Shown: positions 6,998 to 55,178, numbered from the stretch's first letter. The stretch: DNA of 64,000 bases from an uncultured Nitrososphaerales archaeon (GCA_963706445.1 OY970160.1:96001-160000); one strand, 5' to 3'. A program made the numbers and translations. Notes: generated by a model not told the origin, from the sequence alone.

Positions 6998-7567
6998 GTG
7001 TTTGGAATTGTCGGGGTAAACACTAAGGAAGCGCCCGAACAGACACGCTTGCCGATGCGGCCAATCTACGGCGTGTCCCTAGAGGTCGGAGCCTTTGTCT
7101 TGTTGATACTCTTCAGACTGGCCGTCCCAGGCGGGCTCCTGTTCGGCATCTACGTGGTGATCGCAGAGCTCATGTCGACCTACCTCTTGCACTGTCCAGG
7201 CCACTACATCGTGGGGTCGACAGTGGGTATCAGGTTCAGAAGCATGGGCCTAGGGCGGACGACCCTCGCCAGAGTACTTCCCCCGTGGGCGGCTGGACTC
7301 GCCAAGGCCTTCCCTGTCCTGACCCTCAGGACCAACAAGAAGACGCTGGCAGCGGCATCAAGGACCAAGGCGGCCGCGATGTATGCTTCAGGGACAGTGG
7401 CCTCTGTCGCCTCCGCTTTCGTGATAGCGGCAGTCTCGACCCTCGTCGAGCCTTTCACTTATTCAGCGGTTGCCTGGATTGTAGCAATCGGGTACCTGGC
7501 CTTCGACGTCGTCTTTTCTCCGAGAAGCGGCGACCTGATGAGGGCCAGGGCAGCCCTACGACCCTGA
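6998..7567 (+). CDS. membrane protein, peptidase M50-like with degenerate HExxH (HCPGH)
   Basis: several TM segments, LLHCPGHY, ASG and C-terminal SGD; start uncertain. Confidence 0.5.
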   Translation: MFGIVGVNTKEAPEQTRLPMRPIYGVSLEVGAFVLLILFRLAVPGGLLFGIYVVIAELMSTYLLHCPGHYIVGSTVGIRFRSMGLGRTTLARVLPPWAAGLAKAFPVLTLRTNKKTLAAASRTKAAAMYASGTVASVASAFVIAAVSTLVEPFTYSAVAWIVAIGYLAFDVVFSPRSGDLMRARAALRP

Positions 7568-8740
7568 CTTTCCCCTGAATCTGTCCACCCCCAGGAAGCC
7601 AAGGCCGAACCCTGGTTTCTTGTCCGTGGCCAGGTCTGCCCCCACCTCGCCGAGGACGCTCGCGAACTTGAACCCGTGGCCACTGCAGGCGCTCACCACT
7701 ACGACCCTCGGGTCATCCGGGTGCAGACCGACGGCGAAGTTCAGGTCAGGGGTGTTCGAGTAGAGGCACGTGGTGGAGGCGATAGGCTTCCCATCAAGTC
7801 CTTTGACCCTCCGCGACATGAACTCCCTAACGGGCTTGACGTCTTCCTCGGTGACCTCCCTCTTCACATCGTCTGGGCCCGAAATCTCTCCCCCATGGGT
7901 GCGAGCCACCTTCACTCCATGGCCGACGTCGGGGACTCCATAGTAGAAGATCCCCTTGGACTCTTCCATGATGAATACGGGCATCTTGGGAGGCGCGTAG
8001 ACATCTCGGCCTCCTGAAGAGAACCAGAGTGGCACCTGCCGCTCGATCTGGAGGGGAACAAGACCTCGAAGCAGCTGGCCGTTCCACGGGCCGCCGCAAA
8101 CCACGAGCTTCTCGGCCACCTGCGTCCCCGCTGAGGTCTCGACCTGTACCCCCTCTGCGCCCGCCTTCCAACCCTTCACCTGCTCGGAGAACCTGAACTC
8201 GCATCCCGCTTCGCTCCCGAGGCCCACGAACGCCCTCACGCAATCCTCTGCGAACAGAACCCCGGCGCTTTTCTCGTAGACGGCAGAGAACTCCTCCCCC
8301 AGTGTCAGGGCAGGGAACCGCGCCGTCGCATCCGATGACGAGAGCTCCTCCACTTCGAGTCCATGAGCCCTCGCGCTTTTCATCACCCCAGGGACGAGCT
8401 CCCCGTCCATCCCGCCAACCATCAGCCCTCCAGTGATCTGCATGAGCTTCTTCCCTGACTTCGACTCGACCTCCCGCCAGGACTCGTAGGCCCTCCGCAG
8501 GAGGGGGACGTACCGGGGGTCCTCGTAGTAGGCGAGCCTGATGATCCTTGTCTTCCCATGGGACGAGCCGAACTTGTGGTTGACCCCGAACCTCTCAAGG
8601 TTTAGCACCCTTAGTCCCCTTCTTGCAAGGTTGTAGCTGACTGACGCGCCCATCACTCCACACCCGATCACAATCGCATCCCATCGCTTCCTGCTGACGG
8701 GCCCCTGCCCCGGCGGCCTGACAGTCTGGCTAATCGACAA
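7556..8740 (-). CDS. solA: N-methyl-L-tryptophan/monomeric sarcosine oxidase
   Basis: GCGVMG FAD motif, GSSHGKTRIIR, CLYSNTPD, SGHGFKF. Confidence 0.88.
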   Translation of the reverse strand: MSISQTVRPPGQGPVSRKRWDAIVIGCGVMGASVSYNLARRGLRVLNLERFGVNHKFGSSHGKTRIIRLAYYEDPRYVPLLRRAYESWREVESKSGKKLMQITGGLMVGGMDGELVPGVMKSARAHGLEVEELSSSDATARFPALTLGEEFSAVYEKSAGVLFAEDCVRAFVGLGSEAGCEFRFSEQVKGWKAGAEGVQVETSAGTQVAEKLVVCGGPWNGQLLRGLVPLQIERQVPLWFSSGGRDVYAPPKMPVFIMEESKGIFYYGVPDVGHGVKVARTHGGEISGPDDVKREVTEEDVKPVREFMSRRVKGLDGKPIASTTCLYSNTPDLNFAVGLHPDDPRVVVVSACSGHGFKFASVLGEVGADLATDKKPGFGLGFLGVDRFRGKSGS

Positions 8741-48034: not shown

Positions 48035-48208
48035 CGCGACGGAAGCGTCGTCGTCAAAACTATATCAACGTATGCGCACCGTTAGTCAAAAGAAGTTTGC
48101 TAATGCAAGGCGGCAGCCCTTCCCCGGTCGCGCCCCTTTCCATCGTCCAAGCCTGGGAGCCGCTTTCGCACTCGTAGAAACATCGGAGTCGTTATCCTAG
48201 CACTCGTC

Positions 48209-48529
48209 TTGTTGGGGGCGGCGACGTTGGTTCTGGCCTCGGCTTCACGTCCTCCTGGGCCACCGACTGTCCAGCTGTCCGGCACTGCTTCGACCCCCGG
48301 GAGCGACCCAAGAACCATTCAAATCTGGTTTGCGAGCTGGAACGGGTCGTCTTACACCGCCAATGTAACAAACGGCCAATACTCCATCGTCTTGCCAAAT
48401 CACATGACCTACGACATTTTCCTTCTCGGAACAGGCGCATCAAATGGCTACTCCGGTTGGTGCACCGCGTCAGAAATCAACCTAAGCCAAAGTAAAGGAT
48501 TGGCACTAACAGAGAACTTCTATTGCTGA
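48209..48529 (+). CDS. small secreted/membrane protein, start uncertain
   Basis: frame open from 48104 encodes RFRTRRNIGVVILALVLL signal-like segment without ATG; NGQYSIVLPN. Confidence 0.5.
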   Translation: MLGAATLVLASASRPPGPPTVQLSGTASTPGSDPRTIQIWFASWNGSSYTANVTNGQYSIVLPNHMTYDIFLLGTGASNGYSGWCTASEINLSQSKGLALTENFYC

Positions 48530-48562
48530 AGCCTAGGATTCGCCACTGGAGATTCATGATGT

Positions 48563-48582
48563 ATGGGGTCGCCCGGATTCGA
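48563..48582. repeat. att-like duplication of tRNA-Pro 3' end (partner 55076-55095)
   Basis: ATGGGGTCGCCCGGATTCGA vs ATGGGGTCGCCCGGATTTGA, 19/20. Confidence 0.85.
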
Positions 48583-48623
48583 TGGGTTTACAATGCAAAT
48601 CTAAAACCGGTTCGGGCCCGGAG

Positions 48624-48678
48624 GGATGCGCTTAGATAATTAAGCGAATCCCAAACCACCACAGGTGGGTTCGAGTCC
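48624..48678. repeat. dif-like 11-6-11 site plus GTTCGAGTCC box, copy 1
   Basis: GGATGCGCTTA-GATAAT-TAAGCGAATCC-CAAACCA-N10-GTTCGAGTCC; inverted partner at 54269-54323. Confidence 0.7.
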
Positions 48679-48814
48679 GACCGTCGCCGTTTTTCTATAC
48701 ACTCAGAATGAGCCCCATTTGGCCAATAAGCCTGACTCTGGTTACTTGGGACGCGCTGTTTTGGGCGAGTCTGCTCCGTTTGACAATATGAGCGTTTTGA
48801 TTGAAGTCTAGCCA

Positions 48815-50374
48815 CTATTGGAGAATTTGTCTTCGTCTAATCAGGAGGTAGGACGCAATGATTAAAGCGACGAAGGCAGTCACTGCAAGAAATTGGAATG
48901 GGAACTCAGGAACCCCTCCGCCCTCAGTCGCACTTGATGTGCTTGAAGAAGTGACAGAAGTGTTTGAACCAAGATTAGCCGAAGTGGTCGTTGCTGTTGA
49001 AGCAGTGCTGGAAGTCGTCAAAGCGGTCCTGGATGAGCTCAATGAGCTCGTCGTAGATGTCGTTGAGGAGTTCGAAGGATATATTTCGGAGACCCCATTC
49101 GCGACCAAGACGTCTACCCAATTTCGGATGGAATCATATGTCATCTGCCAAGGACTTTGCCCTACTGTCACGTTTTCGATAAAGGAGGTCCCCGTAACCA
49201 GTGATACAATGTCGCTTGGTTCGCTACCGCATCCAATGCATATGTAGGCGACGCCACTGTTCGAGACATATACGAGACCATTTGACGGATTGAACAAGGC
49301 AAAGGTGGGACTTACTCCAGTATGGACTGTTCCAATCACTTTCGTTCCGTTGACTACAGATACGCCATCCAGTTGATTGGGGTAATAGACGAAGCCCGTC
49401 GATGGGACGTATATTGGTTCTATCCCCGGGAACCCAAGTGAAACATTTGCCAAGTTTGACTTGCCCTCGATCACCGAGATTGTGCCCGGTCCGTAGACAC
49501 TCACGTACACGTAAGTGTTGATCGGATCGTAGAACAACTTCTCAGGGTACGTGCCTACCCTGATGGTCGTCGTCAGCTCGCTTCCGTTTATTACGGCGAC
49601 CTTGTCCCCGTACCCGTAGTTCTCGATTGTCAGGTAGACAAGCCCGTTGGCAGGGTCAAACAAAGCCGCTCCCGGAGAACCCCCCATTTGCACTGTAGAA
49701 ATCAGGGTCGTACCATTGATTACAGATGTAGTGTTGGCTTTTGTATTCGGGATGTAAGCAACCCCATTCGAAGGGTCGATGGCCATCGCGCAGTCTGAAA
49801 TGTCTCCACATCCACCATTCAAGTGACCGGCTTCACTGGTGCCGTTGATTATGGTGATCCCTCCTCCATTCTGGGCCAAGTAAACAAGGCCATTGAAGGG
49901 ATCGAATCCGAAGATGGCGGGACTAGAGTTACAGTAGGGGGTACAGAGAGTAAAAGAAGTTGGCAAAGTGTCCATTACAGTGGTGCCATTGATTATGGCA
50001 ACCTCCTTCCCGCTGAATCCCTCTGCGTAGACCAGATGGTTTGACTGGTCATAGAGAAGTGGGGTGTCCGTGTTTGTAGAAGATCCCGAGTCAAACGTTA
50101 GGTTCGCGATGTTCCTTGTCCCGTCAATCACAGATACACCGCCTTCAGAGCCGTTACCGTATCCCACATAGAGGAAGCCGTTGTCCGGGTCGAATGCCAT
50201 AGAATTTGGCGACAACGGTGTTGGGACGAAGTTCGACCGGAAAGGAGGGGTGGTTTGAGGGCCTGCGGCGCCGGCAGAGCTTGCTGCCGACCACGCCAGA
50301 ATGGCAACCAGTGCGACAGATATGGCGCTCGAAGTGCCCCACCCGGTATTCAAGGCATTCGAAAGGTGTCGCAC
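48815..50374 (-). CDS. YncE/YVTN beta-propeller surface protein with Ser/Thr linker and PEF-CTERM signal
   Basis: repeated DP.NG.VY..N..VSVI.GT; VPEFPFQ + TM + RRR tail. Confidence 0.85.
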   Translation of the reverse strand: MRHLSNALNTGWGTSSAISVALVAILAWSAASSAGAAGPQTTPPFRSNFVPTPLSPNSMAFDPDNGFLYVGYGNGSEGGVSVIDGTRNIANLTFDSGSSTNTDTPLLYDQSNHLVYAEGFSGKEVAIINGTTVMDTLPTSFTLCTPYCNSSPAIFGFDPFNGLVYLAQNGGGITIINGTSEAGHLNGGCGDISDCAMAIDPSNGVAYIPNTKANTTSVINGTTLISTVQMGGSPGAALFDPANGLVYLTIENYGYGDKVAVINGSELTTTIRVGTYPEKLFYDPINTYVYVSVYGPGTISVIEGKSNLANVSLGFPGIEPIYVPSTGFVYYPNQLDGVSVVNGTKVIGTVHTGVSPTFALFNPSNGLVYVSNSGVAYICIGCGSEPSDIVSLVTGTSFIENVTVGQSPWQMTYDSIRNWVDVLVANGVSEIYPSNSSTTSTTSSLSSSRTALTTSSTASTATTTSANLGSNTSVTSSSTSSATEGGGVPEFPFQFLAVTAFVALIIASYLLIRRRQILQ

Positions 50375-50441
50375 TTCTATTTACGCCCGACCACCGCTAT
50401 CGGTGGGCCTCAAGCTCCGTTAGTCAACAATCCGTAAGTAT

Positions 50442-50924
50442 TTGGCAGCCATTTCTTGGTCGATGAAGACGCAAACCGCGGCATTCGTTGCAGTTGCTTT
50501 TGCTGTTGTGATCGTGGTTGGGGCCTTGAATTTCGCAGCTGTCACCAAGGGAGCGACTTACACCGTCAACGGCCTGACATGTCCTATACCCTCTGATTAC
50601 CTCTCGTTCAAGGCTGCTGTTAACCTGGTCCCTATGGTGACACAGCAACCTCAATTCCTCAGCCTTGCCAACGGCTCACCGTACATGTTCGGGAACGCGG
50701 AGAACCTGACCGACCGGACCCAGCAGATCGACAACGGGCCCGTCCAGCATCTGCCAGACGCCGTTGAGATGGTGTTCTACACCTGGGGTACCAGCACCTA
50801 CTGCGGCGAGACGGGAGGCTTTGTCAATCCGTGGCTGAGCACCATCGTAGTCCAGGTCCCAGTGCAGAATGAACGGTACAATCTGACTGGTGCCACCTAC
50901 AACACAGGTGGAGGACCAGCATGA
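50442..50924 (+). CDS. secreted/membrane-anchored hypothetical protein
   Basis: N-terminal hydrophobic helix, two Cys, N-glycosylation sequons. Confidence 0.7.
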   Translation: MAAISWSMKTQTAAFVAVAFAVVIVVGALNFAAVTKGATYTVNGLTCPIPSDYLSFKAAVNLVPMVTQQPQFLSLANGSPYMFGNAENLTDRTQQIDNGPVQHLPDAVEMVFYTWGTSTYCGETGGFVNPWLSTIVVQVPVQNERYNLTGATYNTGGGPA

Positions 50925-51134
50925 GACCTACGGCTACCTGAATGGTCTGTGCGCGTCATCTGAGCCCTATGCTCCGGGGCCCTGCAACATTAGACCCTAT
51001 GAGCCGTTTAGGGCAATGCTCGCATTAGTCTCCTTCGCAGTATTGGTCTATTCATTCATGGGACTCTGAACTACGGACGTGGAACAGAGCCCTAGTCGAT
51101 CAGGTCGGGGCGCGTCCCCCCGCTCGGGCTCTAG

Positions 51135-52844
51135 TTAGGGCAACAGACCGTAGGTTTGGACAGTACCCAATTCGATGGATGAGATGATCCCAGTTTGGAG
51201 GTTGAGAACGTAAATCGAATCTCCGTTCAAGTATGTTGATTCTTCGAATCCCCCGTATAACAGCCCGTTCGACGAATCAATAGCCAAGTCGTCCAAAGGA
51301 ATGCCATGGGGAGAGGTCTGCGAGACGACCTCGTTGGATTCCGAGTTGATCACCAGAAAGCCCACGGATGCGGTTTGCGGATTGGTGAGCTCGGTGGCGT
51401 AGATATTCCCATTATTCGGATCCAATAGGATGGTCGGCTCCTCCGCGACAAGCCCTTCGTCTAGGCCAGGAACGGGAATATTGGCGACCATCTCGTTCGT
51501 GTTAGTGCTGATGGCGGTCAGGTTTCCGCCAACATAGTTGGAACCCTGACCACTGTAAAAGTACATGTCCCTGTTGGAGGGATCGTAAAACAGAAAACCA
51601 CCGGATGACGAAATCTCCGACCCAACTGGTTGAAGCGTAGTCCCGTTCAGGGCGATGATTCTCCCTCCGAGCGTCTGGTTGTACTGCGAGGCGTAAACTA
51701 TGCCGTTGTCAGGGTCGTAGAAGAACGGGTACGCGGTAGTGGAGACTCTTCCAACTATTTGCAGGGTGTCGGCATTTATCGCGAAGTTGGTCCCGTTGTA
51801 GACCGACACGAGAATCTCGTTGTTCTTTCCATCGTAGACCGCTCCCCCGGGACTTGACGCTAAGGTTATGTTAGTGAGTATTCTGTCTGTCGAGTCATCG
51901 ATAACCAAGAGTCGGCTGTAGACGAAATCCACGCAGAATATCCTCCCATTCGTGGGGTCGTAGACCATCGAGCTGATTGACTGGTCCGACGCGCTGGTCA
52001 CGAGCTTGTGCTCGATGAAGTTTGTCGCGGTATTGATTGCAAAGATCTCCGGCGAATCCTGGGCCCCGACATATAGCTCCAGGTTCCCGGGGTCGTAGAG
52101 ATAGAAAATCATGGGACTCCCGATCAAGTCTGGGAGTGAGATCGTCGTGAAGACGCGCTCTGAAGATCCGTTTATGACCGTGACCGAATCCAGCCCCGGA
52201 TTGGCGACATAGAGCAAGCCGTTGGTATCGTCGTAGAACATGGGACTGGCACCGGCCTCTCCTCCCGCCACACCACCATTCGACTTCTGAAGGAAGATGC
52301 TTGAAACTGGAGACATCAGTTCTCCCCCTGACGAAGTGATGTACAACTTCACAAGATAGGTGCTGTATTTCAAAGATGGAAAAACCAACATCGACGAAAA
52401 CTCAGTGTGGGGGACAGCATCCACTACGATCGAGGTGTTGGTCTCTTTGATATTGGAGGCCGAGGTGATCAGAGGGCAGCAGAAAGTCTGATTCTCCCCG
52501 TATGGATTCTCAACGTACGCCAGATAGGCATCGGTGACGACCCGGACCGAATCAGGATTGGGGAGGTTGCTCAGAAAGGTGGCATTGACGGCAACCTTTC
52601 CGTCGAACAGCTGAGGGATCGCCTGAACGAATCGGAACGACTCGTTGCCGGAGTAGTGGGCTATGCCAGTGGACGAACTGCTGTGCGTGCTACTCGATAA
52701 CTGCGATGACCTGCTAGAGTGATTCGCCGTTGAGCTCAAGGCGGCGTATGCGATAGCTGCGCCAACGAGCAGTATCAGAATTACGGCAACGCCTGCCCAC
52801 CTTCCCGCTGCTGTGCGCCGCTTGATGGCAGTCACCATTCCCAC
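51135..52844 (-). CDS. membrane-anchored YncE-like beta-propeller protein
   Basis: N-terminal TM, Ser linker, repeated YDP.N..LYV..I..T. Confidence 0.82.
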   Translation of the reverse strand: MGMVTAIKRRTAAGRWAGVAVILILLVGAAIAYAALSSTANHSSRSSQLSSSTHSSSSTGIAHYSGNESFRFVQAIPQLFDGKVAVNATFLSNLPNPDSVRVVTDAYLAYVENPYGENQTFCCPLITSASNIKETNTSIVVDAVPHTEFSSMLVFPSLKYSTYLVKLYITSSGGELMSPVSSIFLQKSNGGVAGGEAGASPMFYDDTNGLLYVANPGLDSVTVINGSSERVFTTISLPDLIGSPMIFYLYDPGNLELYVGAQDSPEIFAINTATNFIEHKLVTSASDQSISSMVYDPTNGRIFCVDFVYSRLLVIDDSTDRILTNITLASSPGGAVYDGKNNEILVSVYNGTNFAINADTLQIVGRVSTTAYPFFYDPDNGIVYASQYNQTLGGRIIALNGTTLQPVGSEISSSGGFLFYDPSNRDMYFYSGQGSNYVGGNLTAISTNTNEMVANIPVPGLDEGLVAEEPTILLDPNNGNIYATELTNPQTASVGFLVINSESNEVVSQTSPHGIPLDDLAIDSSNGLLYGGFEESTYLNGDSIYVLNLQTGIISSIELGTVQTYGLLP

Positions 52845-52951
52845 CCAGGCCTCTCGATGAATTGGAGAACCTCCGGGATTTACGGATTGTTAACCCGCTG
52901 GCCCGTTCTCACGAGTAGAATTTAACACCCCTTGAGGGAACCCTACGTGGC

Positions 52952-53248
52952 ATGAGACGTAGTGCGAAAGCATTGGTGGGAATCGCCACCGTGTTGGCTT
53001 TTGCTTTCTTCTTCTTTGCCCCAGTAGTCTATTCGCCCACCAACCTCTACGTCGGCGTGAGCGCCGTGGTCGGTTCAGGGTGTGTTCAGGAAGGCACACC
53101 GACATGCTCCCAACCCTCAGCGACCTACCCGAATTGGGACTCCTTGAGTTGTTGGGCGTTTGGATTTGGCGTCTACTACGGATTGACGGTCTACCAGCCC
53201 CCCGATTCCTTCCAATTTGGGTGCCATCCCCCGCCGTTTCTTGTCTAG
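52952..53248 (+). CDS. small membrane-anchored Cys-containing protein (paralog of 53948-54205)
   Basis: shared FFxAPxxYSPT, TYPNW.SLSC..FG.G.YYG.TV.QP.DS.QFGC. Confidence 0.75.
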   Translation: MRRSAKALVGIATVLAFAFFFFAPVVYSPTNLYVGVSAVVGSGCVQEGTPTCSQPSATYPNWDSLSCWAFGFGVYYGLTVYQPPDSFQFGCHPPPFLV

Positions 53249-53351
53249 CCTCTGAAAGCAACCCTACCCTATCCACCCATCTAACCCCACCGAAATCGCT
53301 AGGCCGTTCTCAGAAGTAGGCGTATATCCTGCAGTCCAGATTTGGAAAGAG

Positions 53352-53870
53352 ATGAAGACCGGAATCGTCGCCGTACTCTTGGTAGCCATCCTATTCGGGG
53401 CCACAGCCGGGTATCTCGTAGGAACCACGACTCGGGTGACGGCGACAGTGACTTCTCTAGCCACTGTCGGTTCCATTGTCTATGCTGAACCATCAATAAC
53501 GAATTTCCATTCTGAAATCGACGTAACCTTCCACACCGTTCTTAACGCCTGCACTGGGTGCACTGGAGGGGGTTCGTTCACTTATCCCCTTTCAGTCAAT
53601 TACAGTGGCGGCATGTGGATTCTCCATTATTGGGTCCAAAATTACTCTGGAACGCAGAACAGCATCAGTGGGAATCTTGTCGGTTCGGGTAACTCCTCGA
53701 TATCGATAACATTCTATGTAGATGGTTACGTCGAGTATACCCTCTGCGCGAGCGCAACACCAGCGGGGAACGACTATCCCGTACAATATCCATTGACACT
53801 GAGTTCATTGGGTCAAAACGTGACTTCAACAGGTTCCACGGTAGAGACTTGCGGGACCATAGCCGTGTAG
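53352..53870 (+). CDS. secreted/membrane-anchored hypothetical protein
   Basis: N-terminal TM, Thr-rich linker, beta-rich domain with Cys. Confidence 0.7.
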   Translation: MKTGIVAVLLVAILFGATAGYLVGTTTRVTATVTSLATVGSIVYAEPSITNFHSEIDVTFHTVLNACTGCTGGGSFTYPLSVNYSGGMWILHYWVQNYSGTQNSISGNLVGSGNSSISITFYVDGYVEYTLCASATPAGNDYPVQYPLTLSSLGQNVTSTGSTVETCGTIAV

Positions 53871-53947
53871 CCTCATCCAACCCGCCAAGGTCGCCGGGCC
53901 GTTCTCGTGAGTAGAACTTTACACTCCCTTTGGCTACCCTCTGAGGC

Positions 53948-54205
53948 ATGAGACGAGCGACAAGAATGGCATTACTGGGAATTGGGGTTGTCGCCGTGGT
54001 TGCCTTCTTTGTCTTTGCCCCGATAATCTATTCTCCCACCACCGTTTACGGCCCGCTCTTTCTCAAGACCTATCCTACGTATCCAAACTGGGGCTCCTTG
54101 AGTTGTAGCCTGTTCGGAGTCGGCACCTATTACGGAAGGACAGTTTTCCAGCCCAATGACTCGTACCAGTTTGGATGTCCGTCACCCACGGCTTCGCTGC
54201 CGTAA
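53948..54205 (+). CDS. small membrane-anchored Cys-containing protein (paralog of 52952-53248)
   Basis: same motifs and homologous upstream region. Confidence 0.75.
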   Translation: MRRATRMALLGIGVVAVVAFFVFAPIIYSPTTVYGPLFLKTYPTYPNWGSLSCSLFGVGTYYGRTVFQPNDSYQFGCPSPTASLP

Positions 54206-54268
54206 CTATAGGAGACGAAACCTGCGGATCCTCGACGGAATCGAATCTTTTCAGGCATGCTTCCCGGA

Positions 54269-54323
54269 GGACTCGAACGTCGCAGACTTGGTTTAGGATT
54301 CGCTTGATTTTCCAGGTGAATCC
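54269..54323. repeat. dif-like 11-6-11 site plus GGACTCGAAC box, copy 2 (inverted)
   Basis: GGACTCGAAC-N10-TGGTTTA-GGATTCGCTTG-ATTTTC-CAGGTGAATCC. Confidence 0.65.
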
Positions 54324-54384
54324 TCCATTCAAAAAGCTCTTTTGATTACAAGCGCAAGAGGTTAAGAGAAGCGACTAGAACAGA

Positions 54385-55011
54385 ATGGCAGCGATGGCGC
54401 TGACGTCCAAGCCGCTCTCCCCAGACACCTGGCCCGCCTTCGCCCGCCTCGTGGAGAAGCACAACGGGATCTTCGGCGGGTGCTGGTGCATCTCCTTCCA
54501 TCTCGACCCGGAAGGGGGGAAGGTACCTTCCAAGTACTATCGCAAGATGAAAGAAACCCGAGTGCGGGAAGGCCGGGCGCACGCCGCGCTCGTCCTAGAC
54601 GGCCGGGATGCGGTCGGTTGGTGCCAGTTCGGTTCCACGGCTGAACTTCCGAACATCAGGAGCCGAAAGGCCTACGAGAAGGGACGGATGGAACTCCCCG
54701 ATTGGCGCATCACATGTTTCTTCGTCGACCGAGAGCGCAGAGGGGACGGGATTGCGACCGTAGCCCTCCGCGAGGCTATGAAAATGATCGCCCAGCTCGG
54801 CGGCGGAACCGTCGAGGCGTACCCTGAGGATTACACAGGCCTGAAGGTCTCGTCCTCCTTCCTCTGCAGCGGAACCCTTGGGATGTTCGAGAAGGCCGGG
54901 TTCCGGAAGGCCCGCAAGATCGCGATGCATAGGTGGGTCGTGGTACGGAGGATTCCCGGGACCAAAGGGACTGGCGGACGAAACACGGTGAGAAATGCAC
55001 TCCATGCATAA
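54385..55011 (+). CDS. GNAT family N-acetyltransferase
   Basis: GGCWC, VGWCQFG, WRITCFFVD..RRG.G.A, VEAYP, MFEKAGF. Confidence 0.88.
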   Translation: MAAMALTSKPLSPDTWPAFARLVEKHNGIFGGCWCISFHLDPEGGKVPSKYYRKMKETRVREGRAHAALVLDGRDAVGWCQFGSTAELPNIRSRKAYEKGRMELPDWRITCFFVDRERRGDGIATVALREAMKMIAQLGGGTVEAYPEDYTGLKVSSSFLCSGTLGMFEKAGFRKARKIAMHRWVVVRRIPGTKGTGGRNTVRNALHA

Positions 55012-55076
55012 GAATCCTAATAGCCAGAATCAAGCCCCTGCAGCCAAACAGAGTTCAGTTCAACCTGTATAGAAAA

Positions 55077-55152
55077 TGGGGTCGCCCGGATTTGAACCGG
55101 GGATCTTCAGCGCCCAAGGCTGAAAGCCTAGACCAGACTAGCCGACGACCCC
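55077..55152 (-). tRNA. tRNA-Pro(TGG), intronless
   Basis: GGGGTCG/CGACCCC acceptor, TCAGC-CTTGGGC-GCTGA anticodon arm, CCCGG-TTCAAAT-CCGGG T arm. Confidence 0.95.
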
Positions 55153-55178
55153 ACAATCTCGGCGTCTCATTGGCGTAG

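Follow-up and report, generated by a model that had tools for sequence, protein, structure and literature searches.

The chromosome of an uncultured Nitrososphaerales archaeon (GCA_963706445.1) carries, in a stretch of 64,000 nucleotides (OY970160.1:96001-160000; hereafter the window, with positions counted from its first letter), two inversely oriented 28-bp palindromes that enclose a block of six genes. Genomic comparison found that these two 28-mers belong to a dispersed family, many members of which are fused to tRNA 3′ ends and separate cassettes of accessory genes. We consider that the 28-mers are recombination sites of a mobile-cassette system whose recombinase, probably a tyrosine recombinase, is supplied in trans, and we give this reading a probability of about 55%. 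It is not understood how integrase-less islands of accessory genes come to be assembled and rearranged, and the family described here would offer a defined DNA substrate for such a process.

The genome under study (G000), that of a soil archaeon of the Nitrososphaerota, is a single contig of 1.82 Mb with a G + C content of 58%; among named genomes, it is closest to metagenome-assembled genomes of Nitrososphaerales. It was compared with 54 other genomes of its genus (55 in total), and 82 genomes from 47 other genera served as the outgroup set in the search for 28-mers. The chance expectation for the site patterns was obtained from dinucleotide-preserving shuffles of the window. The contents of the window are archaeal, with an archaeal RNase P and an intron-bearing tRNA. 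ARAGORN found just 39 tRNA genes in the genome, many of them intron-containing.

The inverted pair of 28-mers

Copy 1 (48624-48651) reads GGATGCGCTTA-GATAAT-TAAGCGAATCC and was recognised both in the sequence and in pattern searches as an 11-6-11 palindrome, its arms being complementary at 10 of 11 positions around a 6-bp spacer. Copy 2 (54296-54323) reads GGATTCGCTTG-ATTTTC-CAGGTGAATCC; by direct count it is identical to the reverse complement of copy 1 at 22 of 28 positions, including five of the six in the spacer. On their inner sides both copies continue as N-AAACCA-N10-GTTCGAGTCC with equal spacing (48642-48678 on the plus strand, 54269-54305 on the minus strand). Shuffled windows gave an expectation of 0 matches for the 28-mer pattern and likewise for the inner-extension pattern, and the extended arrangement of about 55 nt has no further occurrence, either in this genome or in the 54 others of its genus. 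Since it is confined to these two places, copies 1 and 2 are specifically related and form a genuine inverted pair. The initial annotation of the window had described two 11-6-11 sites with a 22/28 inverted match and identical inner spacing, all of which the sequence confirms, and had likened them to the pdif modules of bacterial plasmids. The window pair, an inverted repeat of about 55 nt unique in the genus, indeed has its cargo between two inverse 28-bp Xer-type sites.

Copy 1 lies in a stack of pieces of tRNA ends. A tRNA-Arg 3′-end fragment (CTCCGGGCCCG, minus strand, 48613-48623) is fused to it, and together with the ATCC of the palindrome reproduces the last 15 nt of tRNA-Arg(GCG) exactly. 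On the other side, a 16-nt linker with AAACCA (48652-48667, plus strand) leads to a tRNA-Asn 3′-end fragment (48668-48689, plus strand), which extends from the T-loop to the discriminator and is followed by a TTTTTCT flank. The GTTCGAGTCC box at copy 1 is the start of this 22-nt tRNA-Asn 3′ end, after which come about 20 nt resembling the real downstream flank of tRNA-Asn. In minus-strand order, the region therefore reads as a reverse-complemented tRNA-Asn 3′ end, a 28-mer fused to the last 15 nt of tRNA-Arg, 11 nt, and a tRNA-Pro-type arm and core. The composite is repeated in one relative (G054), where a reverse-complemented tRNA-Arg end, a 28-mer, 15-16 nt (an equivalent linker of 15 nt), the tRNA-Asn 3′ end and TTTTTCT follow one another.

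At copy 2 the GTTCGAGTCC decamer (54269-54278, minus strand) is T-loop-like; its continuation matches no tRNA in the genome or the genus, and only the decamer is common to copy 1. Copy 2 itself resembles the variant that is seen directly downstream of tRNA cores elsewhere (GGATTCAC...). Judged by its sequence, the inner box is a remnant of a tRNA T-loop, at copy 1 that of a tRNA-Asn 3′ end with its flank, and not the accessory recombination site for which it had been taken. The predicted tRNA-Asn gene of the genome (1391637-1391706) has a proper 3′ acceptor strand (CGTCGCC) with no matching 5′ strand visible just upstream, and probably contains an unrecognised 5′ intron or is a split gene.

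Distribution of the 28-mers and their fusion to tRNA ends

A scan of the genome and its relatives, which had been proposed together with the initial annotation, revealed a dispersed family and not a unique pair. About eight copies are present in the genome, and 25 of the 55 genus genomes carry 28-mers, with up to nine sites each; a reversed control pattern gave 0 hits. No 28-mer was detected in the other 30 genus genomes, among them the complete genomes G011, G049, G041 and G006, and the outgroup set yielded two marginal hits only. In the genus genomes the copies are frequently found close to contig ends. The family consensus is GGATTCGCTTA-N6-TAAGCGAATCC, with an AT-rich and variable spacer.

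Of 55 catalogued candidate matches, about a dozen of which are spurious (loose-threshold matches in G000), 29 abut either ATCC-CNC-CGGGCCC-G, which corresponds to tRNA-Arg ends, or ATCC-CTT-CCGGCCC-A, and the similarity ends at the discriminator. Intact tRNA-Arg genes bearing such ends are present elsewhere in the genome. Other 28-mers are located 4-125 nt past an intact tRNA or a core copy. The two arms have evolved differently: the distal arm is nearly invariant across species whose flanks have diverged to 70-90%, and the tRNA-proximal arm drifts with no compensatory changes, a T.C mismatch being found at pair 5 in 19 of 27 distinct oriented copies. Such a pattern fits recognition of the duplex by a protein and not a folded hairpin.

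Cassette arrays and homology breakpoints

The usual layout in related genomes has a tRNA core and, 4-125 nt further on, a 28-mer; cargo comes next, and then another 28-mer, which is fused to a core copy. Such units lie head-to-tail, mostly with tRNA-Arg. In G016, 86 nt separate an intact tRNA-Arg gene (confirmed by Rfam) from the first 28-mer. Cargo then extends to a 28-mer that is fused to an Arg fragment, and further cargo to the next Arg fragment; 125 nt beyond this stands another 28-mer, whose cargo is followed by a longer Arg fragment. G004 has five 28-mers in 5 kb, and the cassettes that they separate code for an ABC transporter pair, a RibD_C/DHFR-like protein, a flavodoxin, and a beta-propeller surface protein to which the 519-aa protein of the window is related. 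The open reading frames (ORFs) adjoining 28-mers are ordinary genes (ThiF, heliorhodopsin, ABC ATPase); besides cargo, no protein family was found to recur beside 28-mers, and no recombinase was found in the array units examined.

The genome under study has another array at 798.5-806.5 kb, in which tRNA-Arg fragments at 798560, 799825, 805459 and 806490, all on the plus strand, separate cassettes of 1-5.6 kb; an intact tRNA-Arg is not located nearby.

The RibD_C cassette is common to G004, G016, G000 and others. Compared in gene orientation, the copies of G004 and G016 are homologous in about 140 nt of 3′ flank and in the inner 28-mer arm, and then differ in the spacer (ATAACT versus GAAAAT), the outer arm and all beyond. 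G016 has an Arg fragment fused to the outer arm and G004 has none, and with respect to the tRNA-Arg fragments the cargo of one genome is inverted compared with that of the other. The RibD_C cassette of G016 also contains a 650-bp insertion (positions 7522-8171 of locus L122, corresponding to G016:C1:1313521-1314170), with 100% identical copies at 1333457 and 1512731, which is probably a small insertion sequence (IS) or miniature inverted-repeat transposable element. Two further sites, L009 in G037 and L144 in G008, are 98.7% identical over 474 nt up to the far edge of the 28-mer, beyond which there is no homology; they have a distinctive arm variant in common, and four of their six mismatches fall in the spacer.

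Comparison of 81 sites gave 22 pairs that are homologous on one side only and nine pairs in which homology runs through the site and stops at the tRNA core end, these pairs not being mutually independent. In the one-sided pairs, identity averages 0.86 for the near flank (background 0.31), 0.91 for the near arm (0.79), 0.71 for the spacer (0.44), 0.86 for the far arm (0.80) and 0.39 for the 12 nt that follow (0.29). Set against these backgrounds, the profile indicates a concentration of breakpoints within or at the 28-mer as well as at the end of the core. Synteny breakpoints at the sites, whose absence the initial annotation had named as refuting its proposal, are seen in the family, for example in the RibD_C cassette and the L009/L144 pair, at heterogeneous positions.

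The island at the tRNA-Pro(TGG) gene

In seven genus relatives the distance between an NrdD-like gene and tRNA-Pro/MPG is 30-700 bp; here it is about 7 kb (approximately 48100-55075). The relatives' homology picks up again at the intact tRNA-Pro(TGG) gene (55076-55153, minus strand), which is the integration target, and the far boundary of the island is a displaced tRNA-Pro 3′-end fragment (48563-48579, minus strand), a 17-bp direct repeat of 55075-55091. The island has the boundaries of a tRNA-targeting integrative element, namely an intact tRNA at one end and a direct copy of its 3′ fragment at the other, and the site is empty or otherwise filled in relatives. Neither 28-mers nor Pro fragments are present in the insertions that G016 and G014 carry at this tRNA-Pro gene.

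As the polymorphism with respect to relatives runs from tRNA-Pro to the 17-bp fragment, the mobile unit that distinguishes this genome is bounded by the tRNA-Pro repeats and not by the 28-mers. The original view of the 28-mer-bracketed block as the mobile unit of the window is not supported. Its more general part, that Xer-geometry sites bound a recombinase-less module served in trans, is supported for the family by the cassettes, by the breakpoints and by the RibD_C cassette in both orientations.

Just inside the two boundaries lie the arms of a tRNA-Pro-type element. The left arm (48583-48612) is 84-86% identical to genome positions 763448-763505 and 1230794-1230861, and the right arm (55016-55075) is the same arm that follows tRNA-Pro(GGG) at 1214.5 kb. 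At 1230.8 kb of the genome the right arm of the island (60 nt) and its left arm (about 50 nt) are joined via the Pro core. On sequence grounds, these joined arms and the arm after tRNA-Pro(GGG) are the signature of an element family that inserts at tRNA-Pro genes, sometimes in tandem. A tRNA-Pro-type element of about 16 kb occupies the tRNA-Pro(GGG) site (genome 1214466-1231000), with a second unit in tandem (junction 1230794-1230921), and a further relic of the arm is found at 763.5 kb.

The tRNA-Pro(TGG) gene of this genome has no intron. Relatives G015, G008, G018, G005, G009 and G003 match it in two parts about 30 nt apart, with the break at the equivalent of 55113/55114, near the anticodon loop, which suggests an intron there.

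Search for a recombinase

Pfam was used to find recombinase genes. Only three Phage_integrase (PF00589) matches were obtained in the genome, at 543 kb (beside tRNA-Glu), 1523 kb and 1618 kb (beside tRNA-His); all three lie outside the window, in agreement with the initial statement that the window holds no tyrosine recombinase. No recombinase domain was detected by Pfam on the ORFs of the island, which thus does not encode the integrase of its own that would be expected of a tRNA-targeting element of the tyrosine integrase type. The integrase-bearing elements at tRNA-Glu and tRNA-His in this genome have no comparable palindrome, no SSV-type integrase was found in the genome, and no tyrosine recombinase was found near the arrays of G004 or G016. 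One contig (G056:C70) carries a recombinase and two 28-mers with no clear connection between them. With no recombinase linked to the sites, any enzyme would have to act in trans; a tyrosine recombinase is the most likely one, given the Xer-like geometry and given that no other recombinase class is recognisable in these genomes.

Two other enzyme systems were considered and rejected. A casposon or mini-casposon, with terminal inverted repeats and a duplication of 14-15 bp at a tRNA 3′ end, would be similar in repeat length and in its tRNA-Pro target, but Cas1 was not found in G000, G004, G016 or G005. A site for a serine invertase or resolvase was rejected on the finding that G000, G004, G016 and G061 have no Resolvase domain.

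We therefore propose the following mechanism as a working model. The 28-mers would be the terminal sites of integrase-less cargo, in the window nested in an island inserted at the 3′ end of tRNA-Pro(TGG). Each 28-mer would bind, as duplex DNA, a dimeric site-specific recombinase provided in trans, and strand exchange would occur at or beside the 6-bp centre, with additional exchange in the adjoining tRNA core of about 15-17 bp. As a result, cassettes would be captured, stacked, swapped and sometimes inverted. Both the action of a recombinase on the 28-mer and the class of the enzyme are deduced here from sequence, and the 5.7-kb block of the window may, by extension from the family, still be able to move or invert.

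Several observations weigh against this model. No recombinase was found linked to any 28-mer or array, and the three tyrosine recombinases of the genome, of 386, 394 and 422 aa, score far below the XerA cutoff (best 85 bits, against a cutoff of 220 bits). One recombinase family shows no correspondence with the 28-mers in its occurrence; the other follows them only loosely (both in 18 genomes, 28-mer only in seven, recombinase only in nine, neither in 21), a co-occurrence to be regarded as a lead at most, since the genomes share ancestry and are unevenly complete. The breakpoints fall at no single nucleotide, some being in the spacer, some at the far edge and some at the tRNA core end, and the site pairs counted for them are not independent. 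The spacers of partner sites differ, which a classical tyrosine-recombinase reaction tolerates poorly. In the window itself, copy 2 has no adjacent tRNA core, and relatives have nothing that corresponds to the block, whose mobility is therefore argued by analogy.

Alternative explanations for the 28-mers

The most serious competitor, unlikely in our judgement but by no means negligible, is that the 28-mer is a passive arm. It would be an accessory or arm site, or simply an inherited sequence, of a tRNA-targeting element family in which exchange takes place only in the tRNA core; breakpoints at 28-mers would then be due to illegitimate or short-homology recombination that now and then joins dispersed copies, and the window copies would be decayed relics. 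The nine pairs that break exactly at the tRNA core end agree with this, as do the tRNA-Pro repeats that form the island's own boundaries, the degeneracy of many units (half sites, truncated genes, an IS insertion) and the failure to find an enzyme linked to the sites. However, several independent breakpoints lie between the arms, although homologous exchange would have very little to work with in 11 bp. Nor does a passive sequence account well for a distal arm that stays near-invariant despite flank divergence, for sites at both cassette ends, or for a cassette inverted relative to the cores.

That the 28-mer is a regulatory palindrome, whether as operator for a transcription factor that acts as a dimer or as a bidirectional promoter or terminator travelling with the cassettes, appears improbable. 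The consensus is a perfect palindrome with an AT-rich centre, the sites are intergenic in 38 of 42 cases, and in some cassettes the site ends 24-32 nt ahead of a start codon, all as an operator might; but the placement is inconsistent, with 31 gene starts and 42 gene ends faced at the same median distance and in all four configurations. The cargo genes in the window have shared upstream modules of their own, distinct from the 28-mer, and regulation leaves the tRNA-end fusion and the homology breakpoints unexplained.

Still less probable, to a degree that we give it very little weight, is a site that acts through its structure, as a transcribed hairpin RNA or as a folded single-strand DNA site (attC-like, or like a repetitive extragenic palindrome). 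On the plus strand only, copy 2 can pair into a perfect stem that includes two G.U pairs, and site L027 has three G.U pairs on the same relative strand. Against this, compensatory covariation is absent in the 27 distinct oriented copies, the T.C mismatch being the majority state at pair 5; Rfam scans at both gathering and E-value thresholds gave no match at either site; and the copy 2 region folds no better than shuffles (z = -0.2). Hairpin RNAs and transcription-factor operators had both been named at the outset as outcomes that would overturn the recombination proposal, and both are rated improbable here. A structured RNA at copy 1 was rejected as well, its moderate fold (z = -3.0) being explained by the juxtaposed tRNA fragments. 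ARAGORN with introns allowed found no unconventional tRNA gene at either site, and split or permuted tRNA and bulge-helix-bulge intron readings, tried by eye, did not fit.

The suggestion that copy 1 is the chromosomal dif, or that the pair is resolved by Xer in chromosome segregation, shares with the data the 11-6-11 geometry only and is hardly credible: a multi-copy site with a patchy distribution, missing even from complete genomes and situated at 0.145 and 0.150 Mb in a monotonic GC-skew stretch (turning points near 1.0 and 1.76 Mb), excludes a chromosomal dif, and no XerA equivalog was found in the genome.

Cargo of the island

The cargo consists of six ORFs between 48815 and 54205, located at 48815-50374 (minus), 50442-50924 (plus), 51135-52844 (minus), 52890-53276 (minus), 53352-53870 (plus) and 53948-54205 (plus). 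Five of the six proteins have N-terminal signal or anchor segments, so that the label of an envelope gene block given to them originally is a fair one; the 519-aa protein also has a C-terminal anchor. No nucleotide homolog of the cargo block was found at this site in relatives. Two paralogous segments, 52896-53240 and 53892-54195, are about 70% identical and inverted around the ORF at 53352-53870.

Short modules (50399-50440, 53280-53332 and 53897-53953) stand immediately upstream of three cargo genes. They recur in other islands of the genome (at 800.4, 1214.6, 1281.0, 1229.7 and 796.3 kb) and in relatives, and have the look of promoters or 5′ regions that are portable.

A GNAT acetyltransferase gene (54385-55011, plus strand) separates copy 2 from tRNA-Pro, with about 76% nucleotide identity to the copies of relatives, where it is located on other contigs. 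It thus arrived here with the island or through rearrangement.

Comparison with known systems

The pdif modules of Acinetobacter plasmids consist of genes flanked by inversely oriented 28-bp XerC/XerD-type sites. The system described here is similar in having 28-bp 11-6-11 sites around cargo-only modules without a recombinase of their own. It may also be similar in the occurrence of one module in different contexts and in both orientations and in exchange points inside the site, as suggested by the RibD_C cassette and the L009/L144 pair, the breakpoints of the family being heterogeneous in position. It differs in that the 28-mers are chromosomal and archaeal and are fused to tRNA 3′-end cores, with cassettes stacked at tRNA genes; in that the host has no recognisable dif or XerA after which the sites could be modelled; and in that the arms of the 28-mer are near-identical palindromes, whereas pdif sites have distinct XerC and XerD halves.

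Sites of the dif type have the 11-6-11 organisation and are cleaved at the ends of the spacer (PMC8371274). With Xer/dif systems and IMEX elements the 28-mers share this geometry and a recombinase not encoded by the element. Unlike them, the 28-mers are multi-copy, patchy within the genus and away from the skew switch, and integration takes place at tRNA ends and not at dif.

Like the attC arrays of integrons, the 28-mer arrays contain promoter-poor, diverse cassettes separated by imperfect palindromes, with the boundary inside the palindrome and the enzyme encoded elsewhere. Unlike integrons, they have no IntI or attI platform beside them, the 28-mer is fixed and lacks both the R''/L''-L'/R' organisation and the GTTRRRY core, and its evolution indicates recognition as duplex and not as folded single strand. 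An identity as integron cassettes was rejected on the missing core and on the absence of a tyrosine recombinase near the G004 and G016 arrays.

The att sites of thaumarchaeal integrated elements are short (median 17 bp), lie mostly in tRNA genes and occur in tandem (PMC6563490). The cryptic tRNA-targeting elements of Thaumarchaeota described there and, by analogy, the tycheposon islands of Prochlorococcus (bioRxiv 10.1101/2020.12.28.424599) resemble the present case in tRNA 3′-end integration with 15-17 bp direct repeats, in tandem accretion that leaves partial tRNAs between cargo-only units, and in islands missing from close relatives. The units examined here differ from both in having no integrase and in carrying a conserved 28-bp palindrome at both ends, with breakpoints within it; text searches of the two reports gave no comparable palindromic end-site.

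The present case differs in uniting pdif-like and tRNA-island features: on the chromosome of an archaeon, cassettes that lack an integrase end in palindromic sites fused to tRNA cores. A wider claim, which we advance tentatively and with rather less confidence than the recombination-site model itself, is that this would be a chromosomal archaeal counterpart of pdif modules and integron cassettes, in which Xer-geometry sites welded to tRNA 3′-end cores, and served by a tyrosine recombinase in trans, are a main engine of accessory-gene turnover in the genus. If true, the principle of a module flanked by dif-like sites would reach beyond bacterial resistance plasmids to archaeal chromosomes, with a testable mechanism and, as its substrate, a 28-bp Xer-geometry cassette-end site with internal exchange points. 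The motif and the partial tRNA ends together also make a simple marker by which cassettes can be delimited in fragmented metagenome-assembled genomes.

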